A stretch of 32,000 bases of DNA from Hyphomonadaceae bacterium UBA4763 (GCA_002403455.1 DHHV01000128.1:8987-40986), one strand, 5' to 3'; shown: positions 1 through 20,899, counted from the stretch's first letter. Numbers and translations are program-made. The notes: generated by a model from the sequence alone, not told the origin.

Positions 1-1
1 G

Positions 2-556
2 CAGGCAATGGCGGCTGCCGAGCTCGCAATCATGGCGCAAGGCGGGGTTTTACAAAGCGATGTGGTGAACAATTGGCGCTATCCCGCCGACGGGATCGGC
101 GCGCCGGGCGCGCGGGACGACATTCGCGCCACGGTGGCGCTGGTCGGCTTTGGCGCGATGGAGCGGGTCGAAGCCTCCTATGTACGGGCGCAAAGCGATG
201 ATCGGGGCGAGACGTTCGCGGGCGATCGGCGCTATCGCTTGATGGTGCCGGCCGATGTGCCCGCTGACGCATTTTGGTCGCTGTCGATGTATGAGATTGA
301 TGCGGACGGGCGGTTGTTCTTTGCGGAAAACGCCATCGCTCGGTATTCCTTGGGCGATCGCACGCCGGGATTGGTGCGAGCGGCCAATGGCGCGGTCCTG
401 GTGATCATGCAAAGCGATCCCCCAGCCGAAGGCGCGGGCAATTGGTTGCCGACGCCGCGAGGACCCTTCGCGATCCTGTTCCGGCTTTACATTCCTCAGA
501 CGCGCTTTTTGCGCGGCGAATGGCGATTGCCCGCCGTTGAGCGGTTGGCGGCCTAA
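2..556 (+). CDS. DUF1214-domain protein, C-terminal portion (frame open to window edge; first ATG at 8)
   Basis: ORF track 8..556. The translation (FWSLSMYEIDADGRLF, GNWLPTPRGPFAILFRLYIP) fits my recollection of DUF1214 proteins. There is no stop between nt 2 and the ATG at 8, so the gene may continue upstream of the window. Confidence 0.6.
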   Translation, partial: QAMAAAELAIMAQGGVLQSDVVNNWRYPADGIGAPGARDDIRATVALVGFGAMERVEASYVRAQSDDRGETFAGDRRYRLMVPADVPADAFWSLSMYEIDADGRLFFAENAIARYSLGDRTPGLVRAANGAVLVIMQSDPPAEGAGNWLPTPRGPFAILFRLYIPQTRFLRGEWRLPAVERLAA

Positions 557-738
557 GCGGGTCGAGTGGCAGTCCGCTTCGTCCTGTGGCTCGCGCGTTA
601 TGCGTTAAGTCATTGAAATTTAGAAAGAGACGGAGATGATCTGGCGACGGGCGGGGTGTTGCCGATCGCACCGGCGACTAAGCTGCGCCTAAAATGCAAC
701 GCGTTTTCGCGACCTGCGCCCAGCACGACAAAAGGCTT

Positions 739-762
739 TGACGCAGGGTAAATCTTGCGTCA
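739..762. promoter_or_regulatory. Inverted repeat TGACGCA-N10-TGCGTCA upstream of the TonB-dependent receptor gene (operator or 5'-leader hairpin)
   Basis: Perfect 7-bp arms at 739-745 and 756-762 read directly from the sequence. TTGACG at 738-743 could double as a -35 element. Confidence 0.35.
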
Positions 763-776
763 GATTGTCGACAATC
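763..776. promoter_or_regulatory. Perfect 14-bp palindrome GATTGTCGACAATC; candidate GntR-family operator
   Basis: Perfect dyad with a GT..AC core about 37 nt upstream of ATG 813. The 12-nt core ATTGTCGACAAT recurs at 9062-9073 upstream of the operon that encodes the only GntR regulator in the window. Confidence 0.5.
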
Positions 777-812
777 CGAATAACGGAAAAATGATAATCG
801 GGAGGAAGCAAC

Positions 813-3098
813 ATGAAACACCGCAATTTCTGGGCGGGCGCGTCCATCTTGTGCCTGACGGCGCTGACCGCGACGGCCTGGGCGCAGCAAGGCCCGCCGC
901 AAACGGGATCGCAGCGGAGTGCGACACAACCCGCCGATGACGACCTCGTCTCCGACGAGATTGTGGTCAACGCGCGCAAGCGGGCCGAATCGCAAGCCGA
1001 GGCGCCGGTGTCGGTGTCGGTGCTGACGGCGGGCGCGCTGCAGGATTTCGTCATCGAAGACACCGACGATATCTTGCGACAGGCGCCGGGACTGACCTTG
1101 GTCAATGCCGGTCCGGCTTTTACCAATGAAATCTCAATCCGCGGTCAAGGCGGCGGCCGGGTCGGCTTTTCCGAGGCGGCGACCGGGATCTACCGGGACG
1201 GTCATTATATCGCTGGCGGTGGTTTTGGCGGGCGCAGCTTGTCGACGCTCGATCTCTATGACGTTCAAAACGTTGAAATTCTGCGCGGACCGCAAGGCGC
1301 ATTGTTTGGCCGCAATGCCGTCGGCGGGGCGATCAATGTCGTGACGCGTCGGCCGACCGATGAATGGGGCTTCTCGGGCGAATTTGGCTTTGACAATTTC
1401 GAGCGGTTGCAATTGCGCGGGACCGTTAATGCGCCGCTGACAGATACGCTGGCGCTGCGGGTCGGCGGCTTTTTCATCGATCAAAATGACGGGTTTATCA
1501 CCCAATTGTCGACCGGCGACGTTATTGACCAGCGCGGCGATAACGGTCTGCGCGCTCAGCTGCAATTTTCGCCCTCGGACCGCACAAACTTGCGCCTGAT
1601 TTTTGAGTTTCGCGATTCCTTTGACCCGAGCTTTTCGACTTTGGGTTTTCGGCCGTTTCGCGCCGCGATCCCGGGCCCTTTGGGCGGGTCGGTGCTCGAT
1701 CCCGAACAATTTGTGCGCAATTTAGATACGATCAGCCGCGTCGATATCCAAGAATATCAGGGCTTTGCCGAGTTTACGCACGAATTCCCGTGGGCGGTGC
1801 TGGAATTGCGCGCCAGCACGAAATTCCGCGACGGGATCCGGTCCGGCGATGATTTGGACCATTTTTTGGGCTTCCAAGGGGTTTCGTCGAGCTTCCCGCC
1901 AACCCCGCCCAATCCGCAGCCGATCAATCTGGTCGTGGTGCAGTCGGAAGACTTTGAACGGGCGGGCGGCGAGATATTGTTGCGCTCGCTCGATGACAAT
2001 GGCAGCCCGATCCATTGGTTATTTGGGGCCGAATACCAGTTCAACAGCTCGTCGGTGATCACCGACACCACCGGTTTTGCCGGTAATTTCGCTGGATTGC
2101 GGGCGCAATTGCGCACCGACAGCTCGAATGAAACGCTGAATTCATGGTCGGTCTATGGGTCGTTTGAATATGACTTTACGGATCGCTTGTCGGTCGGCAT
2201 CGAAACGCGCGTGCAAGGCGACAGCAAGGATTTCTTCTTCTTCCGCGTCGCCAATGCGCCGGCCTCCTTGTCGCCGCCGATCACCATCCCGGACGAGGAC
2301 CAGAGCTTTGTCCGCGTCACGCCGGCTTTTACGACGCGATTCTCGCTTACCGAAGACGTGTCGGTGTTCGGACGGGTGGCGACGGGCTTTCGCCCCGGCG
2401 GGTTTAACCTCGGCATTCCGCCGGACTTGCCGGTCGCGGATGCGGAAGACTTGTTGTTTTATGGGCCAGAATACGGCGTCTCGGCCGAGTTTGGCGTGAA
2501 GGCGAGTCTGTTTGACGGGCTGATCTATTTTGAAGGCGCGATTTTCAATCAGCGAACCTTCAATGTGCAGATTGTCACCCAACCTTCGGCGACCAACACA
2601 ACCTTCATTCTACAAAATGGCGGCGATTCCAATATTTGGGGGGTCGAATTACAGGCCAATACGCGCTTCAACCTGCTGGGCGGCACGATGACGATCGGGC
2701 TCGGCGCGTCGACCAATCAAGGTCAGTTCCTCAGCGGCACCGAAGCGCTGATAAATGGCGCCGTGGTCGATCTGAGCGGCAACCGCATCAATCGCACCCG
2801 CGACTTCATTGGGCAGGCCAATTTTGTCTATCGGCGGCGTCTGTTTGGGCCGTTGGATTGGTTCGTGACAGGGAATTTCCAAACCCAGCAAGGCGGATTT
2901 GAAGACGCGACCAATACCGACAATTTCGAGAGTTTCGAAGTGTTCGATTTTAGGGCCGGATTGAATACCGAGCACTGGAATTTGTCGTTCTTTGTGCAGA
3001 ACGCCACAAACCAGATTTATCGGATCCAGGAATTGTCGGCGAACGATTTCCTGAACACGCCGCGCAGTTATGGCTTACGTCTCTCCTTCAATTATTGA
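813..3098 (+). CDS. TonB-dependent outer-membrane receptor
   Basis: 761-aa ORF with signal peptide MKHRNFWAGASILCLTALTATAWA and a TonB-box-like DEIVVNARK. Plug-domain block ILRGPQGALFGRNAVGGAINVVTRRP; barrel terminus YGLRLSFNY. GGAGGAAG Shine-Dalgarno lies just upstream of the ATG. Confidence 0.9.
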   Translation: MKHRNFWAGASILCLTALTATAWAQQGPPQTGSQRSATQPADDDLVSDEIVVNARKRAESQAEAPVSVSVLTAGALQDFVIEDTDDILRQAPGLTLVNAGPAFTNEISIRGQGGGRVGFSEAATGIYRDGHYIAGGGFGGRSLSTLDLYDVQNVEILRGPQGALFGRNAVGGAINVVTRRPTDEWGFSGEFGFDNFERLQLRGTVNAPLTDTLALRVGGFFIDQNDGFITQLSTGDVIDQRGDNGLRAQLQFSPSDRTNLRLIFEFRDSFDPSFSTLGFRPFRAAIPGPLGGSVLDPEQFVRNLDTISRVDIQEYQGFAEFTHEFPWAVLELRASTKFRDGIRSGDDLDHFLGFQGVSSSFPPTPPNPQPINLVVVQSEDFERAGGEILLRSLDDNGSPIHWLFGAEYQFNSSSVITDTTGFAGNFAGLRAQLRTDSSNETLNSWSVYGSFEYDFTDRLSVGIETRVQGDSKDFFFFRVANAPASLSPPITIPDEDQSFVRVTPAFTTRFSLTEDVSVFGRVATGFRPGGFNLGIPPDLPVADAEDLLFYGPEYGVSAEFGVKASLFDGLIYFEGAIFNQRTFNVQIVTQPSATNTTFILQNGGDSNIWGVELQANTRFNLLGGTMTIGLGASTNQGQFLSGTEALINGAVVDLSGNRINRTRDFIGQANFVYRRRLFGPLDWFVTGNFQTQQGGFEDATNTDNFESFEVFDFRAGLNTEHWNLSFFVQNATNQIYRIQELSANDFLNTPRSYGLRLSFNY

Positions 3099-3130
3099 TA
3101 GTCAAGGCAATATTTTTATTCTCCCTCCTT

Positions 3131-3158
3131 GAGGCGGCCAATGGTCGCCTCTTTTTTT
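3131..3158 (+). terminator. Rho-independent terminator of the TonB-dependent receptor gene
   Basis: GAGGCGGCC-AAT-GGTCGCCTC forms a 9-bp stem (one G-U pair) followed by a run of 7 T. It starts about 30 nt after the stop at 3098. Confidence 0.8.
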
Positions 3159-3199
3159 GCGCGATGACGTCGGCAGAACATAGCTTGAGGCAACGCCTG

Positions 3200-3308
3200 G
3201 CGAATTGCGCGCTTCAAGGTAATCCAAGCGGACGAAGATGCGTTAGAATCTTGTTTTTGCGCATTTTCTTTGCGCGAACCGGTTCTCACTCCGCTTGAAA
3301 ATGCTCTA
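3200..3308. repeat. Copy A of a ~110-nt intergenic repeat (second copy at 11793-11902)
   Basis: Hand alignment of 3254-3308 against 11848-11902 gives 47/55 identities. The left part shares the blocks GCGAATT, TTCAAG and GAAGATGCG. Copy A contains the palindrome GAACCGGTTC and ends on the GntR stop codon (3306-3308). Confidence 0.7.
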
Positions 3309-4031
3309 TTTCTGGTCACGGACGATGCGCGACATCGTGAAATCGAACAGTTTTTCGATGGCGTCGCGGGCGCGATTGGCGTTGCCCGCGTCGATCGCGT
3401 CGGCAAGGCGGGTCCAACAGGCGGCATTGCGCACGCGATCGCGCTGGGTTGGAAAGCCGGCCGTCTGGAAGGCTTCATGACCAAAGGTGATCGAGCGAAC
3501 GATCTGCACGGTGCGCGGGGTGTCGGCGATGGTGATGAGGCCCTGAATGGCGCGGCGCACTTGCCGGGCGAAGGCCTCAGTATCGGCGCCGGCGGTGGCG
3601 AGCGCTTCGAGCTTGCGCGCTTCACCGATGAAATCGGCTTTGGCGGGGCTGTTCGGGGCTTGCGCGGCCTGCTGGGCCATCAGCCCGGCCAAAGCGCGGC
3701 GGATCAAGAACACCTCATAGAATTGGGCGTCATTGACGGTGGCGACGCGCGCGCCGCGCATCGGTTCGATCACCACCATGCCTTGGCTTTCCAAGATGCG
3801 CAGCGCCTCGCGCACCGGCGCGCGCGAGCAGCCAAAAGCGCGGGCGAGCTCTTGCTCGCGCAAGGGCGCGCCGGGGGCGTAGCGGCCGCGCTCGATGTCG
3901 CGCGAGGTGGCGCGCGCAATGCCAAGCGCTGAGACCCGCGCATCGGGCGTGCGGAGTTTGACGACTTTTGGATCGGGCTTTGGCGCGCCGTCGGGTTGAT
4001 CTTGCGTGGGGGAGGCTATGCCAGAAGTCAT
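3306..4031 (-). CDS. GntR-family transcriptional regulator (FadR/FCD-type C-terminal domain)
   Basis: 241-aa ORF. The winged-helix block REQELARAFGCSRAPVREALRILESQGMVVIEPMRGARV is typical of GntR regulators, and the C-terminal half is helical. The ATG overlaps the upstream stop (ATGA at 4028-4031). Confidence 0.85.
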   Translation of the reverse strand: MTSGIASPTQDQPDGAPKPDPKVVKLRTPDARVSALGIARATSRDIERGRYAPGAPLREQELARAFGCSRAPVREALRILESQGMVVIEPMRGARVATVNDAQFYEVFLIRRALAGLMAQQAAQAPNSPAKADFIGEARKLEALATAGADTEAFARQVRRAIQGLITIADTPRTVQIVRSITFGHEAFQTAGFPTQRDRVRNAACWTRLADAIDAGNANRARDAIEKLFDFTMSRIVRDQK

Positions 4032-5476
4032 TGATCGCCAGGGGTTTGGGGGAGGGGCGGACGCAGGCGATACAAGCCTTGCACCCGCGTTGCGTAAAAC
4101 AGGGAGCCATCGCCGAACGGGGTCAATGTCAACCCAAAATTGCGAGGCAAACCCGACAGATGCGTGAGTTCGACGCCATCGGCGGCGCGCAACCAGCGCG
4201 CGGTCTCGGTCCGGTGGGTCGGCGCGCCGAGCCGATCAATTGGCGCCTCGCCAATGTCGCTGGCGACCAGCACGCGGTTGGCTCGATCGCCCATCAGCGT
4301 CACGAAGGACCCGGTCCGCAAGGGGCGGCGCCAGACGGCGCGCAATTGCCCGCCGGCAAGCTCGAGCGCAGCGAGGCCGCCATAGGCTTCGGCCGAATAG
4401 AGCCGGCCGTTGATCGCATCGGTCGATACTTTCGACGGCATGAATGACCATAGCTGGCCAAGATCGGCGAAGGGCGCGATGCGATAGACGTCGCGCGCAT
4501 CGGCTTGCGCAATGACGGTGACGCGCATCGGCGCGGCCGTCGGCAACGCATTGTTCTGCACCGCGACGTAATCGCCAAAGCCGACGACGGCGGTGCCGGG
4601 GGTTTCCGCGCCGTCGCGATAGGCGACCGGCCCCCAGGCGGGGTCTAAGGTCAATCGGCGGCCGTCATAGATCATCCGATGAACGGCGTTGGCGCCGGCC
4701 AGATAGACATATTCCCTGCCGGCAAAGCGCGTGCTGCTGACACGGCCGCCGATCAATTCGGGCGCAACGCCCTCCCAGATGATCGACAGGTCGCTCGGAT
4801 CGATCAGCGCCAAAGCCGAGGCGGGCAAGCCATCCACACCGCATTCGATGAAAGCGCGAAAGCCTTGCACCGGGCAATCAGGCTGGCGGTGATGGGATTT
4901 GGCAAGGATCATGCCGTCGGAGAGGACGATAAAGCCGTTATAGGTGCTGTGAAGGAGGCCATTCGGGGCGGGGAGGTCGCGCAGCGCCAGCACCGCACCG
5001 CTCTCGGGATCAAGTTTGGCGAGCCGCGCGGCATAGGCAACGAACACCGCCCCTGAGGCGTGCACGCCCAGCCCGCCGGGATAATTCCACAAACCGGGGT
5101 CGTCGCGCATCGGTAAATCCACGCGCCAAACTTCGCGCATGGTCTCTGGGTCGAAGCGGCTGATCGCCGGACCGCGCACGCCGGGCGCTTCGGCGATGAC
5201 GCCGTGCAGGGCAAAGCCGCGACCTTGCGCGTCGAACGCCGCTGCCCATAGGCCGGGCATCGTGGGGATTGTCGCGATTGGCTCTTCGCCTCGCGTCGAA
5301 AAACGCGGCGCCACGCCGTCGAACAGGCTGGTGCGGGAGGATTGCGCATGCTCAAACGCGCCGATGGCGGGGGCCCAATCGCGTGGATCGCGATTCTGGG
5401 TCGGCGTGCTGGCGCAGGCGCCGAGCGCCAGCAGCGGCGCGGTGTGGATCAGGTTCCGACGGGTCCAGTCAGCCAT
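4028..5476 (-). CDS. Exported lipoprotein with PQQ-like beta-propeller-type repeats, function unknown
   Basis: Start placed at Met38 of ORF 4028..5587, giving MADWTRRNLIHTAPLLALGAC (RR motif plus lipobox LGAC). Blade-like segments recur: RFDPETMREVWRVDL, LAKLDPESGAVLALRDL, LALIDPSDLSIIWEGV, LAGGQLRAVWRR. This ATG overlaps the upstream stop (ATGGCTGA at 5469-5476). Confidence 0.7.
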   Translation of the reverse strand: MADWTRRNLIHTAPLLALGACASTPTQNRDPRDWAPAIGAFEHAQSSRTSLFDGVAPRFSTRGEEPIATIPTMPGLWAAAFDAQGRGFALHGVIAEAPGVRGPAISRFDPETMREVWRVDLPMRDDPGLWNYPGGLGVHASGAVFVAYAARLAKLDPESGAVLALRDLPAPNGLLHSTYNGFIVLSDGMILAKSHHRQPDCPVQGFRAFIECGVDGLPASALALIDPSDLSIIWEGVAPELIGGRVSSTRFAGREYVYLAGANAVHRMIYDGRRLTLDPAWGPVAYRDGAETPGTAVVGFGDYVAVQNNALPTAAPMRVTVIAQADARDVYRIAPFADLGQLWSFMPSKVSTDAINGRLYSAEAYGGLAALELAGGQLRAVWRRPLRTGSFVTLMGDRANRVLVASDIGEAPIDRLGAPTHRTETARWLRAADGVELTHLSGLPRNFGLTLTPFGDGSLFYATRVQGLYRLRPPLPQTPGDQ

Positions 5477-7121
5477 GGGGTGGCCTGATTTCAAGGGTTT
5501 CGTAGGGCTCCAAGGTGGCGATGGCGGCGATCGGATCGGGCTCGCGCCAGGCGAACAGGCGCACGATAATCCGGTCGCGCTCGACATCGATTAAGGTAAA
5601 GCCGTTTTTCTCCAGCACCGGCCCATTTTGGTCGAGCGACATGCCGGCCGGGGCTTGCGGCAACGTGCCGCGCGCAAAAGTCGGCCAGCCGGCGCCGGAG
5701 GTTGAAATGGGCCCCGACAAAACTGTTCGCACCGGATTGGCCGAGAGGTCGAGATCGCCGCTTTGGCGCATCGCGCCCCAGCCGATGGCGTGCAAATCGC
5801 CGGACAACATCAGCGCAGCGCGCTGTTTTTGGGCGGAGAGAGCTTGGACAAGGCGCTGGTGCTGGGCATGCCAGCCGCGCTGCCAGAAGAATTTGGCGCG
5901 CTGATTGGTCAGGCGCAGATTGGCGTCGGCGGCGCCATGCGTGCTGACCACGACGTCGCCATCGCCGGGAGCGGCGACAACATCCGGATACCATTCACGC
6001 CATTTGCCGGCCGACCAGCCCATCGGATGCGAGGGGATATGGGCGAAATGGCGGGTGTCCTCGGTGCGCGTGCGGGCGAGCAGCCAGGCTTCGACCTCGG
6101 GCGGGACCAGGCCGGCATGATCGCCCTTCAGGGTCAAATAGCCGCCGCAATCATAAAGCGCCGCTTCAAACAATTTGCCAAAACGGAGGCTGCCGAAACA
6201 AGTCGAGACGGCGCCCTCGCTGAAATCAACGCCGGACAGGCCGACGGGGCGGGTCGGATCGGGCAGAAATTCGGGGTAATAGAGCCGCTGCAGCGCATTG
6301 GCGGCGCGAATCTGGAAATCATCGGGCGGAAAGGTGACGAAATCGGCGGTGGCGTCGTCGTTTTCGAAATAATCATGGTCGTCGCGGACAAAAAAGCTGG
6401 GGGTCGAGCGCAGGCGCACGCCGTAAAGCTCGGCGATCTGCGGGTCAGCAAGCCGCTTCAACAGGTCTTCATTGGCGCCGCCAATGACGCTTTGCACGCG
6501 ATCGAAATACCCGAACCGGTCATAGGCCTCGCGGGACAAGCGTCGGATCTCGGCATTGGGATGTTCGAGCCAGGCGCGCTGGTCCCAATAAATATGGTCG
6601 CCATTGGCGATGACGGCGTCAGGCGCGAAAGACAGCCCGCGATCGAGCAGCATTTGGCGAATGGCCAAGGGGCGGAAGGCTTCGATCCCGCGCACGCTCT
6701 TGGCGCCTTCCAGGCCGCCGGCGCAAGTGAAGGACAACAGCCGAAAGCGTTGGACCTCGGCATCGGGGGCAGGGAAGGTGCGCAGCGGCCATGGATCACA
6801 AAGGGCGCGGCGGCCCTCTTTCAACTCCAGGCGATAGGTCTGCGCCGGAGCGAGGCCATCGATCTGGAAGCGCCAAAAGCGACCCTCAACGTCGCTGCGC
6901 GCGGCTTTGGCCGGAGCGTCATCGACCAGCAGGCGAACATTTTCGGTCGGACGGGAGAGCGAAATCTTGATCCGAAAGGCGCTGGCGGAGACGGTCGGCG
7001 CGATATGGCGCACCACGCCTGGCGACCAATCGGCGGTGCGCGCCAAAGGGATCAGCAAGGGTGAGAGTGCAGCGGCGCTGGCCGCTCCGGCGATGACGCT
7101 GCGGCGATCGGGGGCGGTCAT
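5469..7121 (-). CDS. PhoD-like metallophosphoesterase with twin-arginine signal
   Basis: Metallophosphoesterase motifs GDHIYWDQ, RDDHDYFENDD and SGDLHA. N-terminal PDRRSVIAGAASAAAL is a Tat-type signal, followed by a PhoD_N-like beta domain (YRLELKEG..LRTFPAP). Start at Met17 (7121) gives an ATGA overlap with the upstream gene; the alternative ATG is at 7169. Confidence 0.8.
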   Translation of the reverse strand: MTAPDRRSVIAGAASAAALSPLLIPLARTADWSPGVVRHIAPTVSASAFRIKISLSRPTENVRLLVDDAPAKAARSDVEGRFWRFQIDGLAPAQTYRLELKEGRRALCDPWPLRTFPAPDAEVQRFRLLSFTCAGGLEGAKSVRGIEAFRPLAIRQMLLDRGLSFAPDAVIANGDHIYWDQRAWLEHPNAEIRRLSREAYDRFGYFDRVQSVIGGANEDLLKRLADPQIAELYGVRLRSTPSFFVRDDHDYFENDDATADFVTFPPDDFQIRAANALQRLYYPEFLPDPTRPVGLSGVDFSEGAVSTCFGSLRFGKLFEAALYDCGGYLTLKGDHAGLVPPEVEAWLLARTRTEDTRHFAHIPSHPMGWSAGKWREWYPDVVAAPGDGDVVVSTHGAADANLRLTNQRAKFFWQRGWHAQHQRLVQALSAQKQRAALMLSGDLHAIGWGAMRQSGDLDLSANPVRTVLSGPISTSGAGWPTFARGTLPQAPAGMSLDQNGPVLEKNGFTLIDVERDRIIVRLFAWREPDPIAAIATLEPYETLEIRPPHG

Positions 7122-7783
7122 TTCGCGATCGCTTCGCGGCGGCGAAGTCCTTTTTGCGCCATTCGCCATTGCAGCATGTCAAAGCGGTCTTGGCCGAAGA
7201 ACGGCTCGCCCTCAAAGACCATCAGCGGCACGCCCCAATGGCCGGCCGCATCCAATTGGCGCTGATTGTCTTGGATCGCGTCTTCGTAAGGGGCTGGGTT
7301 CGCGGCGATCGCCGCATCCAGCGCATCTAGGTCAAGCCCGGCGCGGGCGGCGGCGTCGTGCAAATGCGCGCCCTCGGTCCAATTGGCGATTGCAGGCGAC
7401 CACAAAACCTTACTGACCTCGTGGAGGAAGGCAAGGCCCTGGCCCTGTTCGGCGGCGGCTTGGCCAAGCCGCGTCAGCCGGTGGATATAGGGTTGTTCAG
7501 CCAAATAATGGCCCGTTTGCGGGTCGGAGGCGACCGGATCAGGGCGCGGCCAAGCGAGCTCCATCCCCAAATATTCGGCCGATCGGACCATGTCGCGGAT
7601 GAAATAGCTGACCCAATGCGGGTGGCGGCTTTCGATGAATTCGGGCGCGCGAATGGCGGTCGGGTAAACGACCCGCACCTCGCAGGCGACGTCAAACGCG
7701 CGCTCAAAGGCGATCAGGCGCGGCGTCACCAAATACGAATAAGGCGAGCGGAACGACCAATAAAGCTGAAACTTCAGAGTCAT
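7118..7783 (-). CDS. DsbA-like thioredoxin-fold protein, 2-hydroxychromene-2-carboxylate isomerase family (cytoplasmic)
   Basis: 221 aa. The N-terminal YWSFRSPYSYLV motif is characteristic of HCCA-isomerase/DsbA-like proteins, and GVPLMVFEGEPFFGQDRFDML lies near the C-terminus. No signal peptide. AAGGAGG sits 7 nt upstream of an ATG that overlaps the upstream stop (ATGA at 7780-7783). Confidence 0.8.
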   Translation of the reverse strand: MTLKFQLYWSFRSPYSYLVTPRLIAFERAFDVACEVRVVYPTAIRAPEFIESRHPHWVSYFIRDMVRSAEYLGMELAWPRPDPVASDPQTGHYLAEQPYIHRLTRLGQAAAEQGQGLAFLHEVSKVLWSPAIANWTEGAHLHDAAARAGLDLDALDAAIAANPAPYEDAIQDNQRQLDAAGHWGVPLMVFEGEPFFGQDRFDMLQWRMAQKGLRRREAIAK

Positions 7784-8925
7784 TTTTTCGCCTCCTTGCG
7801 CTCGAAGACATCGTCCGCGCCCAGCAAAGCGGCGTAGCCGCCCGCGCGCAGAAACCCGCGCGCTTTGGCGTCCTTCTCAAAGCGCTCGAGCCAGAAGGCG
7901 GCGGCGGCGACCAGGATCAATTGGTGATGACGCGGCAGGCCCGGATAGCCGAAATCGCGCGGCCCGAGCCGAGGATTGGCTTCGCCGCCAAAGGTGAAAT
8001 GGTTGGCGCCCTCCAAGATCAGCAAATATTGATCGACATTATTGGTGCGATCGAAGGGAATGCGGCGGGCCGGCGCGTCGAAATCGCCATTCGGCGCATC
8101 GTCTTTCGTTCCGGTCAAATGGAAGATCGGCAAGAGCATGTCGGTGAACGCCGTTTCTGCATCGCCATAGCCGGCGCGCGGCGGCGAGGGACTGAGCGCA
8201 AAGGCGCCGAGGAGGTTCGGCAAGGCCAAACCTTGTCCAAAGCCGGAGACCATTTGGCCGGCGATGATTTGCGTCGTGATCGCGCCGAAGGAATGGCCAG
8301 CAATCCCCATACGTGCGGCGTCGATGCGCCCCAAAAGCGCGCCAGGGGCTTGCGCCAACCGCGCGGCGGCATAGCCGACGTCTTCAAAGCGCGGCAGGCC
8401 GGCTTTGGGATCGCGGGCGGCGGCGGAGATCTGTTGCGGATCGGTGCGGAAGGCGTCGCGGTCGCTGCCGGCATGCTGCAAATGGAGCGAGGCGATGCCG
8501 TGGCTCGCCAAATGCTGGCCATAGATCGCGCCGCTGCCGCGCGTGCCGCCGCCGCCATGCGAATAGATCACCACCGGAGCGTTGGTCTTTTGGGCGGGCA
8601 AATAAGCGCGCCAGGGGATAACGCGGTCGTTGCGGGCGGCGTTGACCCAGACGTCTTCGAGTTGTTCCACCGCAAAGGCGCCGGGGAGCGCGTAAGGGTG
8701 GCTGATCCCGCCTTGCGGCGTGTCGGGCGGCGGCGCTTGTTCATTTGCGCCTTTTTGGGCGGCGCGGCGTTGGCGTAACCGTTCGCGCAAACGCTCACGC
8801 TGAGACGGCGTCGGTGAATTGGTCTGGGCGTTGCCGGTCGAGGCGCAGGCCGCTGTCAATAACCCCAAGAAGGCGGCGCCGGTGGCGATCGCTTGGCGAC
8901 GCAGGGGATCGATCATGGCGGGCAT
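7780..8925 (-). CDS. Exported alpha/beta hydrolase (PAF-acetylhydrolase / dienelactone-hydrolase-like esterase), probable lipoprotein
   Basis: Nucleophile elbow GHSFGA and a YSHGGGGTRG block. Start placed at Met101 of ORF 7780..9225, giving MPAMIDPLRRQAIATGAAFLGLLTAAC (RR motif plus Cys lipobox-like site). The ATG alternatives at 8916 and 9036 are less convincing. Confidence 0.75.
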   Translation of the reverse strand: MPAMIDPLRRQAIATGAAFLGLLTAACASTGNAQTNSPTPSQRERLRERLRQRRAAQKGANEQAPPPDTPQGGISHPYALPGAFAVEQLEDVWVNAARNDRVIPWRAYLPAQKTNAPVVIYSHGGGGTRGSGAIYGQHLASHGIASLHLQHAGSDRDAFRTDPQQISAAARDPKAGLPRFEDVGYAAARLAQAPGALLGRIDAARMGIAGHSFGAITTQIIAGQMVSGFGQGLALPNLLGAFALSPSPPRAGYGDAETAFTDMLLPIFHLTGTKDDAPNGDFDAPARRIPFDRTNNVDQYLLILEGANHFTFGGEANPRLGPRDFGYPGLPRHHQLILVAAAAFWLERFEKDAKARGFLRAGGYAALLGADDVFERKEAKK

Positions 8926-9060
8926 TTGGGTTGGGTGGGCGCGTTGGTGGGATTTCAAGGCTAAACTCCTCCGCTGATCATGGGGTCGGCTAGGCTTGAG
9001 CCGCCGCGCCGCCGCTTTTATGTACGCTTTGCCCATCGGCTTTCCGGCGAAGGTAACGCG

Positions 9061-9074
9061 TATTGTCGACAATA
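9061..9074. promoter_or_regulatory. Perfect 14-bp palindrome TATTGTCGACAATA; second copy of the candidate GntR operator
   Basis: Core ATTGTCGACAAT is identical to 764-775. It lies in the divergent region between the hydrolase operon (ATG 8925) and the hsp20 gene (ATG 9192). Confidence 0.5.
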
Positions 9075-9191
9075 TGCAAGCCGATCGGGTTACACGATAT
9101 GGCCGCCGGCGGTAGTGGGCTTCTATGCGCTTGCCAGCGGCGTCGATCGCCGCGAGAAACGAATAATCTTGGATTGTCGAGCTGTTTTCGT

Positions 9192-9611
9192 ATGTCGCGC
9201 CCGATTTCTGACCCGCTGGCCGCATTTGGGCCGTTTGTGCTCGGCTTTGACCATGCCTGGGAATGGGCCGAGCGCGCGGCGCGCGCCCAAGACGGATTTC
9301 CGCCGTTCAATGTCGAAGCGATCGCCGATGGCTATCGCATCACTTTAGCGTTGGCGGGGTTTGAGCGCGAGGCTTTGTCGCTGACCATTCAGGGCCGCGA
9401 ATTGGTCGTTGCGGGCGAGCGCGACGTGGACGAAGCGCCGCGAGCGTTCTTGCATCGCGGCATCGCCATGCGCCGCTTTCGGCGGGCGTTTTTGCTAGGT
9501 CCAGGCCTTGAAGTGGTGGGCGCGCGCTTTGCGCTGGGGCTGCTGGCGATTGATTTGCGACAAACCCCGCCAGAACCGCCAAAACGCATCGATATTGATC
9601 GATCGCCATGA
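9192..9611 (+). CDS. Small heat-shock protein, Hsp20/IbpA family
   Basis: Start at Met44 of ORF 9063..9611. FPPFNVEAIADGYRITLALAGFEREALSLTIQGRELVVAGER..FLHRGIAMRRFRRAF..GLLAIDL follows the IbpA alpha-crystallin pattern (YPPYNVE..YRIxxAVAGF..GIAxRxFxRxF). Confidence 0.85.
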   Translation: MSRPISDPLAAFGPFVLGFDHAWEWAERAARAQDGFPPFNVEAIADGYRITLALAGFEREALSLTIQGRELVVAGERDVDEAPRAFLHRGIAMRRFRRAFLLGPGLEVVGARFALGLLAIDLRQTPPEPPKRIDIDRSP

Positions 9612-9670
9612 CGTATTGATGACAAAATTCGGATATCCATATGGTGGGACGAACGAAAGGAGGTCGCGAA

Positions 9671-9937
9671 ATGACCAAGCTTGATGCTGGCGACGGCTCG
9701 ACCGCTGCAGAACAGCCCAAACTCGTCTATGTGCGGCCGCAAAGCGCGCAATCGGTGATCGCGGAAAATGACATCGACCTGGAAAGCTTAGGCATCAAGC
9801 ACATGCCAGGCCCGGATGACATTTGGTACAGCGTTCATGCGGGGAGCGACGGCGCCTGCCTTGCCATTCTGACCGAGCGCGCCGCCGCTTTCGCCGCCGC
9901 CGAAGCGCATGATTTTCTGCCCGTCAGCGTCCATTAG
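9671..9937 (+). CDS. DUF1150-family small protein (commonly paired with hsp20 in alphaproteobacteria)
   Basis: AGGAGG at 9658-9663 lies 7 nt before ATG 9671. The pattern KLVYVRP..IWYSVHAGSDGACLAILTERAAAFAAAEAHDFLPVSVH matches my recollection of DUF1150. It sits immediately downstream of hsp20. Confidence 0.65.
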   Translation: MTKLDAGDGSTAAEQPKLVYVRPQSAQSVIAENDIDLESLGIKHMPGPDDIWYSVHAGSDGACLAILTERAAAFAAAEAHDFLPVSVH

Positions 9938-11736
9938 GAAAGAGTTGCGTCTGCCGCTTCGATGATCCGGTGCGGGTTCCAAACGCGATCGGCAAGGCTG
10001 CGCAAGGCGGCCTGACGCTGGGCGATGTCGGACGGGCTGAACCGATCGAACGGGCCGAGCCGGCCGCCGAGCCGCGCGGCCAATTCGCCCAGCTTGGCGT
10101 GATCGCGCCAGGGCCGATGGGTCAGACTGGCGGTGAGCAAGCTTGCTTCGGACAGCGCGTGGCGCTTGTCGACGAAAGATTGGTCGCGGGTTTCGCGGGC
10201 CAGCGCGCGCGGCAGCAAGGCCAGCGCGCCCAGCAAACGCCGGCTGTGCAGATAATCGGCGGTCGGCGCCCCCAAAGGCGCTGTGCGCGGATCGAGCGGC
10301 GGGATCATCTCGACCTCAAAGGCTTGCGCGCCGGTGCGCGCTTCGTAAAGCGGGTAGCGATCCACCCCCAACACATGCCAATCGACATAGGCATAAAGCC
10401 GGGCGAGCAGCGAATGCAGCTCAGATTTCTTGGCGGTTTCGAGCGACAAATCCGGCGAGACGGCAAAACTGGGCGCGAGCGCGCCGACTTGCGCTGCTAG
10501 GAAGAAGCTCAAGGTGCGGGCGTCCATGCCGCGCGCTTGGCGGGCGGTGTCGGCCATGGCGCGCTCGAGCGCGCGGGGCGTCAAAAGGCGCGGCGACCAG
10601 GCTTTGCGGGCGGCGAACACATCACAAAAGGCGATGCCGGTCGCCAATTTGCGCTCGATGACGTCGGGGGCGTCGGTTGGCTCAAGCGGGGCGAGCAGCA
10701 CCCAGATTGCGCCGGGCAATCCGATCCGCCCAACAAAATAGAGCGCTTCGCGCCCGGCGGTGTAGCTGCGCGCCGCTTCGCGGATTTCGCGATAACGGGC
10801 GAGATAGAACACCAGATCGCGGCCCATCAGCTTGGCGAAATCGAGCTGGCCATCACCGAGGCTGGTGGCGGCGGCGTCGCGCATCAGCCCATAGAAGGTG
10901 CGAGCGGCTGCCGGGCTCGTCGCATCGCCTGCGGCGACTGAATAGCGGGCCTGCAAAACGGCGCGGATGGCGGCGATGTCCTCGTCCGGCCCCATCCGCT
11001 GCAATTTCAGCGTTTCGGTCCTGAATTGGTCATGGGCGATATTGCGTTCGTCCTCATCGTCAATGCGCGCCAGCAGAAAATGCTTGAACATGTCGGCGGG
11101 GCGCAGCGGCTGACCGCGATTGTTCATGGTCTCGAACATGCGAAAAGCCATGTCGTCGTCGGCGGCGGTGATCTCAACAAATGTGCCATGCGTGATCAGC
11201 CAGACCGCAAAGGCCGCCAAGGCGGATTCGCGCAGATCGGTCGGGAAATAATCATCGATATCGGCATAACGCTGCGCGATGGCGCGCTCCGCCGCCGTCG
11301 CATTCTGCTCGTCAAACGCGCCTTCAAGATAGAGATGGGCGAAAACCCGCCGATAGTCGTCGACCGCAAGGACGAAGCCGTCATTTTGCGCGTGAACGGG
11401 GCGGATCAGACGATCGAGCCGGTCCTGCATCTGGGTCGAAATGACGTGACGACGGGCCCAGATCAGCAAGAGCAGCAAGGTCGTCAGGCGCTGCTGGCCG
11501 TCAACGATGAAATCGACGTCGAACCGACGATGGGTGATGATCGGCCCGAGGAAATAGGGGCGGGATTCGTCGTGATCAGTCTGTTCGCGGCTGCGAAAGG
11601 CTTCGACCAAATCATCGATCAGCTTGCGAACGGGATCGGCGCCCCAGATATAATCGCGCTGATAGGCGTCGATCGAAAACGCCGATGCGGCGAACAGCTC
11701 CTCAATCGTCCGGGTTTTACTGGCAATCCCACGCAT
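9934..11736 (-). CDS. DUF262-domain protein (GmrSD/ParB-like NTPase N-domain) with degenerate DUF1524-like C-terminus
   Basis: DUF262 motifs are present: AYQRDYIWG, DGQQRLTTLLLLL, FETMNNRGQPLRPADMFK. The C-terminal region FEVEMIPP...LLGALALLPRALARETRDQSFVDKR resembles the DUF1524 HxxP / GNLxLL..N..F..K layout, but with the His and Asn positions replaced. Confidence 0.8.
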   Translation of the reverse strand: MRGIASKTRTIEELFAASAFSIDAYQRDYIWGADPVRKLIDDLVEAFRSREQTDHDESRPYFLGPIITHRRFDVDFIVDGQQRLTTLLLLLIWARRHVISTQMQDRLDRLIRPVHAQNDGFVLAVDDYRRVFAHLYLEGAFDEQNATAAERAIAQRYADIDDYFPTDLRESALAAFAVWLITHGTFVEITAADDDMAFRMFETMNNRGQPLRPADMFKHFLLARIDDEDERNIAHDQFRTETLKLQRMGPDEDIAAIRAVLQARYSVAAGDATSPAAARTFYGLMRDAAATSLGDGQLDFAKLMGRDLVFYLARYREIREAARSYTAGREALYFVGRIGLPGAIWVLLAPLEPTDAPDVIERKLATGIAFCDVFAARKAWSPRLLTPRALERAMADTARQARGMDARTLSFFLAAQVGALAPSFAVSPDLSLETAKKSELHSLLARLYAYVDWHVLGVDRYPLYEARTGAQAFEVEMIPPLDPRTAPLGAPTADYLHSRRLLGALALLPRALARETRDQSFVDKRHALSEASLLTASLTHRPWRDHAKLGELAARLGGRLGPFDRFSPSDIAQRQAALRSLADRVWNPHRIIEAADATLS

Positions 11737-11792
11737 AACGCGGGCTTAACCGCTCGCGCGACGGGCGAAAAGGGCGATTTGGCCGCAGGTCT

Positions 11793-11902
11793 GCGAATTT
11801 AGCGCATCTTCAAGTTCATCAGACTTTGAGAAGATGCGCCTCATTTTTTTTTGCGCATTTTCTTGACGCGAACCGGTCCCCATTTCGCTTCAAAATGCTT
11901 TA
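11793..11902. repeat. Copy B of the ~110-nt intergenic repeat (first copy at 3200-3308)
   Basis: Same block order as copy A. It ends on the TAA stop (11900-11902) of the sigma-54 regulator gene and contains GAACCGGTCC and the GCATTTT...AAAATGC arms. Confidence 0.7.
11802..11852 (+). terminator. Terminator-like hairpin plus T9 tract on the plus strand (inside repeat copy B)
   Basis: GCGCATCTTC (11802-11811) pairs perfectly with GAAGATGCGC (11830-11839), and AAGT pairs with ACTT further in. Then comes CTCA and nine T (11844-11852). No plus-strand gene lies upstream of it. Read on the minus strand, the hairpin is preceded by A9 and followed only by TAAATT. Confidence 0.5.
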
Positions 11903-13354
11903 GCTGGCGAGGCTTCGTTCATCCAGCCACACGTCGAGGTCATATTCGCGTAATTTGCGGTACAACGTGGAGCGGCCGATCCCGAGCCGGCGAGCGGCTT
12001 CGGACATTTGGCCGTGATAGGTCTCCAGCGCCAATTGAATGATGTCGCGCTCTAGATCCTGCAGCCGGCGGACATGGCCTTGCGCGTCGAGCGCAGCGAT
12101 CCGGGTCAGATCAATCCCGCCGTGGGCGGGCGATGGCGCGGTCAGCGCGGGCGCGCTGTTGGCGCCCATATCGGCAGCGCGCAGATGCAGCAATTGCGGG
12201 AAATCCTCGGGTTGCAAATGCTCGCCATCGCACAAGACCACAGCGCGGAAGACGGCATTTTCGAGTTGGCGGACATTGCCGGGCCAATCAAAGGACAGCA
12301 ACATGGTCATTGCCGCGCTGCTGGTCCCGAGGATTTGGCGGCCCTCTTCGGCATTGAAGCGCTTGATGAAATGCTCGACCAGCGCCGGGATGTCCTCTTT
12401 GCGGGCGCGCAAAGGCGGCGCCTCGATCGGGAAGACGTTGAGCCGGTAATAGAGGTCCTCGCGGAAGGCGCCGGTCGTAATCGCTTGGCTCAAGTCTTTA
12501 TTGGTGGCCGAGACGATGCGGACGTCGACGCGCACCGGTCGGCGCGCGCCGACGGGATCAATCTCGCCCTCTTGCAGCGCGCGGAGCAATTTCACCTGCG
12601 CCTCTGGCGGCAATTCGCCGACTTCGTCGAGGAACAAGGTCCCGCCATTGGCTTCGACGAATTTGCCGGCATGGCGATCGACCGCGCCGGTAAAGGCGCC
12701 TTTTTCATGGCCAAACAAAATGCTCTCAACAAGGTTTTCGGGGAGCGCGCCACAATTGACCGTAACGAAGGGTCGGCCGGCGCGGTCGGATTCCCCTTGG
12801 ATAGCGCGGGCGATCATTTCCTTGCCGACGCCGGATTCGCCCAGGATCAGCACCGGAATCGAGCTGGCGGCGGCGCGCTTGCCCATTCGGACGACATTGC
12901 GCATGGCGGGGGCGGTTGCGATCAGATCGGCGAAGGTGATCTCATTGGCGGCCTTTTTCTTCAGACGCGAGACCTCGCCGGTGAGTTCATTGACTTTCAG
13001 CGCGTTGCGCACCGAAACGATCAGGCGCTCGGGGCTGGCCGGTTTGACGAGGAAATCATTGGCGCCGGCTTGCATCGCCGCGACGACCGAATCGAGCCCG
13101 CCATGCGCGGTCAATACGATCACCGGCAAGGCCGGCTTTTGCGCGCGGATCGCCGCCAAGGCCTCCATGCCCGAAAAGCCCGGCATGACGAGATCGAGCA
13201 ACACGAGATCGCAGGGCAAACCGCTCAACGCCGCCTCGACGCCGGTTTGGCCATCGCTGGCCAGCCGCGCATGGAAGCCGTGCCGCTCGATCGCCGCCTG
13301 CAGCAGACGGCGCTGGGTTGGATCGTCATCAATGATGAGAATGGTCTTGGCCAT
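11900..13354 (-). CDS. Sigma-54-dependent response regulator, NtrC family (receiver + AAA+ + Fis-type HTH)
   Basis: Start at Met20 ([16 protein letters not shown]). The receiver is canonical: [23 protein letters not shown]+ motifs GESGVGKE and GAFTGA are present, and the C-terminal HTH reads [19 protein letters not shown]. Confidence 0.9.
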
Positions 13355-13613
13355 GAATAAGTCCTGCGCCGGCCGCCCCGCTGACGGCCATAAGCGGCGT
13401 TGTGCGGGCAACTCTATGGCCCAAGAGCTTTCAAATCGTCCTTAATTGGATCGCGAAAATCCGGTCTATTCTCGTTTTTGGCCGCGCGCGCCGGATTTCC
13501 GGTCGAAAATGCCGCGCCGTTAAGGCCGCCTTTACCGAACGCTCGGCAAAACTTGCCTAGAAAACGTCGGTTCGGAGCTTCGAGCCGGCGGTTCCAAGCG
13601 GGTTGTTGTCGCC

Positions 13614-15308
13614 GTGAACGAGGTCATACAAGCGATTATGCGGGCCGGGCCGCTGCGCCTCGCCATGGCCGGCGCCATTTTGGCGGCGGTGGTCGTCGCT
13701 TTGGGCGCGATCGTCATGCGGGTCGGCGAGCCCAGCAAATCGCTGCTCTATTCGGGCTTGTCGCTGACCGAAGCCGGCGAAATCGCCCAACGGCTCGACC
13801 AGGCCGGCGTCAGATACGAACTGCGCGGCGATGGCGGCGTCATTTTCGTTGAGCGCAGCAAATTGTTGCAGACGCGCTTATTGTTGGCGGGCGAGGGTCT
13901 GCCGACGCGCGGCTCGATCGGCTATGAATTGTTCGACCGCCAAGAAACGCTCGGCCAGACCTCCTTCGTGCAGAATTTGAACCGGGTGCGCGCGCTGGAA
14001 GGCGAATTGGCGCGGACCATTGCGACCATCAATGGCGTTGATCAGGCGCGCGTGCATTTGGTCTTGCCCGAGAGACGCTTGTTCGAACGCGACGGCGCGC
14101 AGCCAACCGCTTCGATCGTGCTGACGTTGGCCGGAGATGGGGCGACAGCCCAAGCCGCCGCGATCCGCCATTTGGTGGCGAGCGCCGTGCCTGGTCTCGC
14201 GCCGGAGCGGGTGACCATCGCCGATCAGCGCGGGCGCTTGCTCGCCTCGGGCGCCGATGGCGGCGAGAATGCGGCGCTGCAGGAAGGCGCCGAGGACCGG
14301 CGCGCCAAATTGGAAGACCGCTTGCGCGAGCAATTGACGGCGCTGGTTGAACAAGTTTCGGGGGCGGGCGCGGCGCGCGTCGATGTGGCCGCCGATCTCG
14401 ACTTCAATCGGGTCCAGGAGAACAGCGTCATTTATGATCCAGATGGTCGGGTCGTGCGCTCGCAGCAAACTGTCGAAGACACCAATACGCGCCAGGACAC
14501 CGAACAGCCGCAAGGCGTCACCGTTGGGGCCAATGTGCCGGACGCAGCGCCGGCGCAAGGCGGGGTAACGACCAATTCGACCGATCAGGGCGAACGCGTC
14601 GAAGAAACCATCAATTACGAAATCTCGACCACCAATCGGACTGAAGTGTTTGAAAGCGGGCGCATTCGACGGCTGTCGGTGGCGGTGGCGATCGACAATA
14701 TCGCCCGCACAGCCGAGGACGGCACGGTCACCTATGAGCCGCGCACGGCGGAGGAATTGCAGCGCATCGAAGCCTTGGTGCGCACCGCCATGGGTTTTGA
14801 CGCCGAACGGGGCGACGTGCTGCAGGTCGTCAATATCAACTTTGCGCGGCCGGAGATCGGCGAAGGCGCAAGCGCGGCGGCGCCGTCTTTGTTGGAGACC
14901 CTCGATATAGCGCGCTTGGCCGAAGTCGGGGCGTTGCTGATCGGCGCGCTGGCGTTGATTTTCTTTGTCCTGCGCCCGGTTATGGTCGGCGGCGGCAAAA
15001 AGGGCAAAGGCGGCAAGGGCGGCGGATTTATCGCCGGATCTTCCGGCGACGACATGATGAAGGGTCCGATTGCGTTGACCGACTCCTCGGGCGCGGTGGC
15101 GCTCGGCGGCGGCGCGGCGGCGGCGGCTTTGGGCGCGCCTACGGATGGCCTTGCCGCTGATATCGAAGAGCGCATGGCGGTCGCGCGGATTCAGGGCGAA
15201 GTCAAAGTCTCGTCATTGAAGAAAGTCGCCAATCTAATCGAGGCCCATCCGGAAGAATCCGTCGCGATCATTCGCGGATGGCTGAATGAATCGCGTGGGG
15301 CGGCATGA
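13614..15308 (+). CDS. fliF: Flagellar M-ring protein FliF
   Basis: 564 aa, GTG start. An N-terminal TM segment is followed by [35 protein letters not shown]...[14 protein letters not shown], typical of FliF. A second TM segment lies near residue 450. The stop overlaps the fliG start (ATGA at 15305-15308). Confidence 0.9.
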
Positions 15309-16372
15309 CCCAATCAGCTTTAGCTCCAGCGCCGCAACCTCCCGTCGCCATGCAAATGGCGGCGGACGTTCAGGCGTCTATCGCCAAATTGAACGGCGCG
15401 GAGAAGGCGGCGATTATTCTGCTCGCTCTGGGCGACGAACAACATCGCATTTGGGCACAGTTGGACGACGAAGAGGTACGCGAGATTTCCTACGCGATGT
15501 CCAATCTCGGCGTCATCTCGGCGGCGATGGTCGAGCGGTTGATCGTCGATTTCGTCAACCGAATGTCGGCGACCGGCGCGCTGGTCGGCTCGTTCGAGGC
15601 GACGCAGCGTCTGTTGCAGAAATTTTTGCCGCCCGAAAAAGTCGACAGCCTGATGGAGGAAATCCGTGGTCCAGCTGGCCGGACGATGTGGGACAAATTG
15701 GGCAATGTGAACGAGATCGTTCTCGCCAACTTCCTGAAAAATGAATATCCGCAGACCGTCGCGGTGGTGTTGTCGAAAATAAAGCCAGATCACGCCGCCC
15801 GCGTGCTGGGCGCTTTACCCGATGATTTTGCACTCGAATGCGTGACGCGCATGCTGAGCATGGAGCCAGTGCAGCGCGAAATCCTCGACAAAATCGAGAT
15901 GACCTTGCGCGCTGAGTTCATGTCGAACCTCGCGCGCACCTCCAAACGCGACAGCCATGAGATGATGGCGGAGATTTTCAACAATTTCGACCGGCAGACC
16001 GAGGGGCGGTTCTTGGGCTCGTTGGAAGAGCGCAATCGCGAATCGGCCGACAAGATCCGTAGTCTGATGTTCGTGTTCGAGGACTTGAAAAAACTCGATC
16101 CGGGCGGGGCACAAACATTGCTGCGCGCCGTTCCGAAAGACCAATTGGCGCTAGCCCTCAAGGGGGCTTCGGAAACCCTGCGCGATCTGTTCATGGGCAA
16201 CATGTCCGAGCGCGCCGCAAAAATTCTGCGTGAAGACATGGCGGCGATGGGGCCGGTCAAATTGAAAGATGTGGACGCTGCTCAGGCCGCTATGGTGCTT
16301 ACAGCAAAAGATTTGGCGGCGCGTGGTGAAATAATCCTGGCCGAAGGTGGTCAGGACGAATTGATCTATTAA
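15305..16372 (+). CDS. fliG: Flagellar motor switch protein FliG
   Basis: 355 aa. [36 protein letters not shown] and [23 protein letters not shown] are classic FliG blocks. Confidence 0.95.
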
Positions 16373-16379
16373 AGGTAAG

Positions 16380-17370: not shown

Positions 17371-17400
17371 TGTGAACACAGCGAAAAAGGGAGGCCCCTC

Positions 17401-18771: not shown

Positions 18772-18788
18772 GAGGATCGATTGAGCCG

Positions 18789-20885: not shown

Positions 20886-20899
20886 GAAAGGAAAAAACG

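Follow-up and report, generated by a model that had tools for sequence, protein, structure and literature searches.

What single regulatory logic could place the same short palindrome in front of an outer-membrane receptor gene and in front of a separate operon for exported hydrolases? This question is raised by a 32,000-nucleotide (nt) stretch of DNA (62% G+C; hereafter the window) from Hyphomonadaceae bacterium UBA4763, in which the 12-mer ATTGTCGACAAT occurs upstream of a TonB-dependent receptor gene and again upstream of a five-gene, minus-strand operon ending in a gene for a GntR-family regulator. The initial annotation, made from the window alone, proposed that the regulator autoregulates its own operon and co-regulates the receptor, and comparative evidence supports this proposal. 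We consider it likely that the palindromes are operators of the FadR-subfamily GntR protein encoded at 3306-4031, and that they govern a TonB-dependent utilization regulon.

Exact matching placed the two copies of the 12-mer where they had been annotated (764-775 and 9062-9073), both between genes and both within perfect 14-nt palindromes, GATTGTCGACAATC and TATTGTCGACAATA, respectively. The first palindrome ends 37 nt before the receptor ATG at 813, as originally reported, while the second lies 136 nt, rather than about 137 nt, upstream of the ATG at 8925 that opens the hydrolase operon. It sits in a 266-bp region separating this operon from a divergently transcribed Hsp20 gene. The distance to the operon falls to 103 nt if translation begins at an in-frame minus-strand TTG (8956-8958), where a GGAGGAG box precedes the codon by 7 nt; the ATG at 8925 is without a Shine-Dalgarno sequence, and the TTG at 8958 may be the true start of a hydrolase of 392 rather than 381 amino acids (aa). 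The partial matches listed earlier at 1239, 10166, 18619 and 20022 were all present, as was an additional TTGTCGAC at 1506. With up to two mismatches to the 12-mer, the window contained seven matches against 1.0 expected, a number reached by none of 100 shuffled sequences; one single-mismatch match, at 20019, is inside flhA coding DNA.

Repeats of this kind need not be functional. Repeated 12-nt palindromes are, as a class, common in such G+C-rich sequence (195 of 300 Markov simulations contained one), and two others are found in the window: TCGGCGCGCCGA (4219 and 24706) and CGGCGATCGCCG (7303 and 23108) are G+C-rich, have all of their copies in coding DNA, and are consistent with chance. The two operator-like copies could likewise be chance repeats or non-regulatory sequences, such as restriction-site-like elements or remnants of a repeat. 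However, a repeated palindrome with at least eight A/T positions arose in only 1 of 600 simulations, and the flanks of the palindromes are not conserved; orthologous positions in 12 other genomes carry the motif at an approximately 22-fold enrichment over control loci (see below). ATTGTCGACAAT therefore stands out from the chance palindromes through its A/T-rich composition, the intergenic location of both copies and the comparative evidence, and we regard a chance or non-regulatory origin as scarcely credible.

To compare this locus with those of relatives, we used the PhoD-like protein of the operon, a predicted metallophosphoesterase, as an anchor to collect 80 loci from species-representative genomes, and added further loci from assemblies. 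The resulting comparison set comprised 12 other distinct genomes, 11 with a full version of the cluster and one (L016) with a partial version, drawn from Caulobacterales, Hyphomonadaceae, Parvularculaceae and Allosphingosinicella metagenome-assembled genomes plus metagenome contigs. Their PhoD-like proteins are 53-67% identical to that of the window. The genes for the hydrolase, the DsbA-like protein, the PhoD-like protein, the β-propeller protein, the GntR regulator and the receptor recur together in this set, in support of the proposed association, while their order varies: the GntR gene is either last in the operon or stands alone, and the propeller gene follows either the PhoD-like or the receptor gene. 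Despite this rearrangement, ATTGT-NN-ACAAT occurs across the 12 genomes upstream of the hydrolase operon and of the receptor, GntR and DUF1254/DUF1214 genes. Orthologous sites precede the receptor gene in L001, L002, L016, L081, L084-L087, L091 and L092, and the hydrolase gene in L001-L004, L016, L081, L084-L087 and L092; in most genomes with a cluster GntR gene, a site lies directly upstream of that gene or of the operon containing it. Footprinting across several gene arrangements thus bears out the palindrome at the two kinds of position for which it had been anticipated (operon and receptor), and finds it at the GntR gene as well.

The motif is also concentrated in the cluster. We counted 46 sites in 213 kb of cluster loci and 13 in 1.31 Mb of control loci, the latter being 75 loci that have a PhoD-like gene but not the rest of the cluster. 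The exact 12-mer was found in none of the 75 control loci, and in approximately 41 kb of DNA scanned from the window organism strong matches were confined to the cluster; both results favor the proposal. A logo of 40 orthologous sites has invariant T3, G4, C9 and A10 and a variable central CG. When the window was scored with a weight matrix built from sites of the other genomes only, the copies at 9062 and 764 ranked first and second (scores in Table 1), and the next match, at 16.2 bits, fell within fliG coding DNA.

Which protein would bind these sites? The regulator encoded at the end of the operon combines a GntR winged helix-turn-helix (HTH) domain (PF00392, residues 38-96, 63.1 bits against a 27-bit cutoff) with an FCD domain (PF07729, residues 106-229, 32 bits against a 24.3-bit cutoff), an architecture that assigns it to the FadR subfamily. 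The consensus operator of this subfamily is an A/T-rich palindrome with TKGT and ACMA boxes in which GT and AC are 3 nt apart, and some groups, including PrpR and MdcY, have a 2-nt spacing (PMC4494728). ATTGT-CG-ACAAT fits the TKGT/ACMA boxes, with GT and AC 2 nt apart. The 12-mer is not new, having already been published as a PrpR/PmiR and FadR-subfamily consensus: ATTGTCGACAAT is identical to the predicted consensus of Pseudomonas aeruginosa PrpR (PA0797), a GntR-type protein shown by electrophoretic mobility shift assays to bind the palindrome-containing region upstream of prpR (PMC9765439). In the Suvorova 2015 supplement the identical sequence is given for further FadR groups, among them 'Bxe_A4089' in Acidiphilium; a search of that supplement for a described regulon with this motif in Caulobacterales or sphingomonads found none.

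The sites could accordingly be operators of a second FadR-subfamily protein whose gene lies in another part of the genome, such as a methylcitrate regulator of the PrpR/PmiR type, with the local GntR protein acting on something else. The recognition helix of the local protein, SRAPVREALRILE, is conserved among the cluster orthologs and resembles SRGPLREAI(R/H)RLE of the PrpR-type proteins compared. The best PDB sequence match of the regulator, 7xp0, is classed with the PrpR group, and its HTH is about 80% identical to that of Acinetobacter PrpR (counted from aligned segments); 7xp0 is probably PmiR/PA0797. The similarity of the window protein to 7xp0 is restricted to the HTH region (residues 43-132, 37% identity) and leaves the FCD domain unaligned, and no prp genes are found in the window or in any cluster locus. 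We therefore rejected orthology with PrpR/PmiR; these alignments indicate that the local GntR protein is a different member of the FadR subfamily whose recognition helix is similar. Furthermore, 11 of the 12 comparison genomes have the motif together with the local GntR gene, and a site is directly upstream of this gene whether it belongs to the operon or stands alone. Since the motif stays with the GntR gene in both arrangements and also precedes it, binding by the local GntR protein is the most economical explanation, and control by a FadR-type regulator from elsewhere in the genome seems unlikely.

A different question concerns the target of the second operator, which might govern the divergent unit of the Hsp20 and DUF1150 genes, either in addition to the hydrolase operon or in its place. 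The Hsp20 ATG is preceded, at a distance of 11 nt, by a half-site, GGATTGTCGAGC (9170-9181), and a weak full-length match, ATTGATGACAAA (9615-9626, 13 bits), falls between the Hsp20 and DUF1150 genes; these matches may connect Hsp20 weakly to the regulon or may be fortuitous. In the relatives, however, it is not Hsp20 but a unit encoding an MFS transporter and a thiamine-pyrophosphate (TPP) enzyme that is divergent to the hydrolase operon. Hsp20 genes occur near the cluster in L085 only, where they share no intergenic region with it, and the site ahead of the hydrolase gene is retained whatever gene lies on its other side. We thus give little credence to Hsp20 as the target, and assign the second operator to the hydrolase operon.

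The regulon is larger than the window could reveal. Three contigs (L088-L090, one of them from a freshwater metagenome) are 99.99-100% identical to the window and reach 9.2 kb further left. On L088, an exact copy of ATTGTCGACAAT occurs at 8214, 139 nt upstream of the full DUF1254/DUF1214 gene, and ATTGTCGACATT, at 7096 and with one mismatch to the 12-mer, lies between divergent genes for a carboxylesterase and a lipoprotein. With these, the organism has four sites in 11 kb, one ahead of each transcription unit in a cluster that comprises nine genes or more. The initial annotation had grouped six genes into a single unit; these genes do recur together, but the limit of six was not borne out.

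Several observations weigh against this reading of the locus. The frequency of the site in this genome rests on the 41 kb scanned, and the MFS and TPP enzyme genes of the relatives are absent from this organism's locus. The second operator is 118 nt from the Hsp20 ATG, about the same distance as from the start of the hydrolase operon. ATTGTCGACAAT is common to several FadR-subfamily groups (PrpR and the Bxe_A4089 group), so the 12-mer alone cannot name the regulator and cross-talk is possible. Finally, the first operator overlaps a promoter-like TCGACA -35 hexamer, but the sole sigma-70-like match there would put the start of transcription within the ribosome-binding site, which makes the promoter positions uncertain. 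No convincing -10 element was found near the second operator. A scan of window positions 1-12000 against Rfam returned no RNA family, and therefore no explanation by a riboswitch or a ROSE element. Abutting the first operator on its upstream side, and outside the motif, is a perfect 7-bp inverted repeat (TGACGCA-N10-TGCGTCA, 739-762) that is seen in this organism's contigs only; a comparable match arose in 14 of 100 shuffles, and the repeat could be the site of a second regulator or a product of chance.

The analysis shows the sites with their positions and conservation, the families of the genes, the predicted folds and the coupling of the operon genes; in the following scheme we infer the binding protein, the direction of control, the effector and the substrate. 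A dimer of the regulator would bind ATTGT-NN-ACAAT at four promoter regions in this organism, namely those of the receptor gene, the hydrolase operon, the DUF1254/DUF1214 gene and the divergent carboxylesterase/lipoprotein pair. Autoregulation would follow from the location of the GntR gene within the hydrolase operon, which has its own site. Repression is the usual mode in the FadR subfamily, and the first operator is so near the start codon that overlap with any promoter is expected; for both reasons we lean toward repression. Binding would most likely silence the four regions until a small-molecule effector, probably a carboxylate released from the substrate, occupies the FCD domain.

The gene calls on which this scheme draws were all confirmed by Pfam (Table 1). 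The receptor has both of the domains that define TonB-dependent receptors, a plug (PF07715, 79 bits, E 4e-22) and a 22-strand barrel (TonB_dep_Rec_b-barrel, PF00593, 105 bits, E 8e-30), and matched no NCBIfam equivalog above its cutoff. On the opposite strand, all four junctions of the five-gene operon overlap, three of them as ATGA, which argues that the genes are translationally coupled in one operon. From their signal peptides, six products of the cluster are predicted to act outside the cytoplasm.

Table 1. Genes and candidate control elements of the locus (window coordinates; aa, amino acids; Tat, twin-arginine translocation)
Feature	Position	Strand	Remarks
Type-B carboxylesterase	left of window	-	seen on contigs identical to the window
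Tat lipoprotein, 325 aa	left of window	divergent from carboxylesterase	no Pfam family; seen on contigs identical to the window
DUF1254/DUF1214 gene, 3' end	8-556	+	Pfam DUF1214, E 2.5e-28; full gene 459 aa, start left of window
Putative operator 1	763-776	n/a	GATTGTCGACAATC, perfect 14-nt palindrome; weight matrix 21.3 bits
TonB-dependent outer-membrane receptor, 761 aa	813-3098	+	Sec signal; Plug PF07715 and barrel PF00593
Terminator-like hairpin with T7 run	3131-3151	+	after receptor gene, in convergent gap before GntR stop
GntR-family, FadR-subfamily regulator, 241 aa	3306-4031	-	winged HTH and FCD; last gene of five-gene operon
Beta-propeller lipoprotein, 482 aa	4028-5476	-	eight-bladed; Tat signal and lipobox; weak PQQ_2 (BamB-like) Pfam match
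PhoD-like / purple-acid-phosphatase-like metallophosphoesterase, 550 aa	5469-7121	-	Tat signal; Pfam PhoD 25.8 bits
DsbA-fold protein	7118-7783	-	Pfam DSBA, E 2.6e-16; predicted cytoplasmic, no signal
Alpha/beta-hydrolase, PAF-AH / cutinase-like	7780-8925	-	first operon gene; Tat signal and lipobox
Putative operator 2	9061-9074	n/a	TATTGTCGACAATA, perfect 14-nt palindrome; weight matrix 21.7 bits
Hsp20	9192-9611	+	ATG 118 nt from operator 2; DUF1150 gene next

The first operon gene encodes an α/β-hydrolase that matches Pfam PAF-AH_p_II (29 bits against a 20-bit cutoff) as well as esterase and cutinase sequences in the PDB, and has a GHSFG nucleophile motif, with GxSxG at residue 210. The next product has a DsbA fold, and we considered and rejected a DsbA-type thiol-disulfide oxidoreductase: at the position expected for CxxC it carries SPYS (FRSPYSY, residues 11-17). 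Its full-length PDB sequence match is to a 2-hydroxychromene-2-carboxylate (HCCA) isomerase, 2imd, and on both grounds we liken it to HCCA isomerases and kappa-class glutathione S-transferases (GST-kappa).

The PhoD-like protein falls just outside the reach of profile searches, scoring 25.8 bits with Pfam PhoD (PF09423) against a gathering cutoff of 27 bits, and gave no match to NCBIfam or in a PDB sequence search. Its structure was predicted with a mean local confidence (pLDDT) of 89 and comprises, in the model, an N-terminal β-sandwich and a metallophosphoesterase domain. The top PDB fold is Bacillus PhoD (2yeq; E 8.6e-17, template-modeling (TM) score 0.50-0.53), followed by purple acid phosphatases and phytases. 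Residues C133, D175, Y178, D247, D248, H249, D250, D442 and H444 are invariant, and this set of residues would be compatible with a metal center of the PhoD type, onto whose ligands we placed them by eye. The family is large (2080 matches at E < 1e-10), and in other lineages its genes are found repeatedly beside TonB-dependent receptors, sulfatases, an alkyl sulfatase and esterases. Outside the alphaproteobacterial cluster these associations are loose though recurrent, with no conserved operon around the PhoD-like gene. As sulfatases neighbor or replace the PhoD-like gene, the ester on which its product acts may be of the phosphate or the sulfate type. One such locus comes from a cultured strain, Porphyrobacter sp. 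CACIAM 03H1 (CP021378.1, 9255-20850; L093): here the PhoD-like gene is directly followed by one for a 1006-aa TonB-dependent receptor, a CRP-family regulator is encoded upstream on the opposite strand, and an FGE-sulfatase, an α/β-hydrolase and a sulfatase are nearby; the locus has neither a GntR gene nor the motif.

The propeller lipoprotein belongs to a much narrower family. Only about 50 homologs were detected, largely confined to this cluster, and a search of a plasmid collection with the propeller protein gave no match. Its AlphaFold2 model (pLDDT 91.5) most closely resembles Rv3035, BamB and YncE, propellers of eight or seven blades. A phytase-type propeller was also considered, but the protein's sole Pfam match is the weak one to PQQ_2/BamB and its nearest folds are BamB-like. 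In five loci the propeller gene is directly downstream of the receptor gene, an arrangement that suggests a role as receptor partner.

In the relatives, the MFS transporter and TPP enzyme genes are added under the same motif. The transporter would be of the carboxylate type. The two genes lie side by side in L084 and L087, unfused, and are fused in L085 (5112-8027) and L086 (5047-7926) into an uninterrupted open reading frame with the MFS portion N-terminal and the TPP enzyme C-terminal. The TPP enzyme matches NCBIfam NF005760, and its closest PDB entry, over its full length, is benzoylformate decarboxylase (E 1e-34). A divergent variant of the cluster, L091, whose propeller protein is 43% identical, retains the motif at five intergenic positions before transcription units. 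Here, a sulfatase (PF00884, 11461-12882) occupies the slot of the PhoD-like gene, an esterase of the polyhydroxybutyrate-depolymerase type takes the place of the PAF-AH-like hydrolase, and a GST gene adjoins the DsbA-like gene.

Further motif sites (L081 2985; L087 1012 and 2410) are beside genes for an extracytoplasmic function (ECF) sigma factor and an AlgE-like (Alginate_exp) outer-membrane barrel, which are possible additional members of the regulon in some genomes. Conjugative or integrative genes (VirB4, TraG, ParB, ArdC-N, integrase, IS66) often adjoin the cluster, as in L082 (1-5564), L086 (1-2027 and 20291-21086), L091 (1006-2232 and 18851-21464) and L092 (1-3834), and this proximity suggests that the cluster moves horizontally. 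A Porticoccaceae locus (L070, 1233-1559) contains four ATTGGTAACAAT-like palindromes at an exact spacing of 105 bp, in what looks like a tandem repeat with no relation to the regulon. In the window itself, the locus is followed by a GmrSD-type (DUF262) gene (9934-11736) and by a flagellar block (11900-22722) with open reading frames for FliF, FliG, FlhA, FlhF-like and MinD/FlhG-like proteins and two sigma-54 activators; this block has no relation to the operators.

Our literature searches on this gene set and on the function of DUF1254/DUF1214 returned nothing useful. In the pathway that we propose, the receptor would import a scarce organic compound by TonB-dependent uptake. In the periplasm, exported enzymes would strip acyl and phosphate (or sulfate) groups from it; the exported set would consist of two α/β-hydrolases, the PhoD-like metallophosphoesterase, the propeller lipoprotein (probably the receptor's partner) and the DUF1254/DUF1214 protein. 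The GST-kappa/HCCA-isomerase-like enzyme would then act on the product in the cytoplasm. In the relatives, a carboxylate would enter through the MFS transporter and undergo cytoplasmic decarboxylation and glutathione-type isomerization. We guess that the substrate is an organic acid, possibly an aromatic one, in esterified, phosphorylated or sulfated form.

More tentatively, the locus may represent a modular system for TonB-dependent catabolism of anionic compounds. These would be ester conjugates of an organic 2-oxo or aryl carboxylic acid, carrying carboxyl-ester groups together with phosphate or sulfate groups. The constant parts of the system would be the FadR-type regulator, the receptor with its dedicated propeller partner, the DUF1254/DUF1214 protein, the GST-kappa-like isomerase and the MFS transporter coupled to a benzoylformate-decarboxylase-like enzyme. 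The esterases would be swappable, as would the PhoD-like enzyme with a sulfatase.

Together, comparative genomics argues strongly for a local regulon of the FadR type on a TonB-dependent utilization locus. Its regulatory logic would be of a textbook kind, and its value is as a handle on an uncharacterized set of enzymes. The operator common to these genes marks out a regulon that is conserved in uncultured alphaproteobacteria of freshwater and soil, and would tie to one import pathway the DUF1254/DUF1214 protein, the widespread PhoD-like family, a narrow family of propeller lipoproteins and an MFS-fused TPP enzyme. The regulator and its operator could serve as a biosensor in screens for the inducing compound, and the inducer and enzymes would in turn reveal which dissolved organic esters these bacteria harvest. 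If the proposal is correct, the substrate would give first functions to DUF1254/DUF1214, to the PhoD-like family with its more than 2000 homologs, and to the cluster-specific propeller family.

Among known systems, the closest in regulatory terms is PrpR/PmiR (PA0797), which represses the 2-methylcitrate (prp) operon of Pseudomonas aeruginosa. Both regulators are GntR/FadR proteins with winged HTH and FCD domains, both are associated with the ATTGTCGACAAT consensus and its 2-nt GT-AC spacing, and the site upstream of the regulator's own operon here recalls the autoregulatory site of PrpR/PmiR. The targets differ: here they are predicted to be a TonB-dependent receptor and exported hydrolases, with no prp genes, and 2-methylisocitrate is for these reasons an unlikely effector. 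The carbohydrate-utilization (CUT) loci of Caulobacter, Xanthomonas and sphingomonads group a TonB-dependent receptor with a regulator, degradative enzymes and an inner-membrane transporter. The locus described here similarly places a receptor with a local regulator and exported enzymes under one motif, and relatives add an MFS transporter; unlike CUT loci, it encodes esterases and a phosphoesterase or sulfatase in place of glycoside hydrolases, and in this organism it has no inner-membrane transporter.

Two of the exported proteins have structural counterparts in well-studied systems. The 550-aa protein shares its predicted fold with Bacillus subtilis PhoD (2yeq) and with plant purple acid phosphatases and phytases, but it is only 13% identical to 2yeq, with a TM score of about 0.5. 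It would also differ from PhoD in being under GntR control rather than part of the Pho regulon, and in having its slot taken by a sulfatase in one variant cluster. The propeller resembles Rv3035 and BamB in fold (TM scores of 0.62-0.75, by query and target length) and in being a lipoprotein, whereas its identity to BamB, Rv3035 and YncE is about 14%, and nothing ties it to the β-barrel assembly machinery (BAM) complex. Its gene often directly follows that of a TonB-dependent receptor, an arrangement reminiscent of Escherichia coli yncE, which lies next to the receptor gene yncD.

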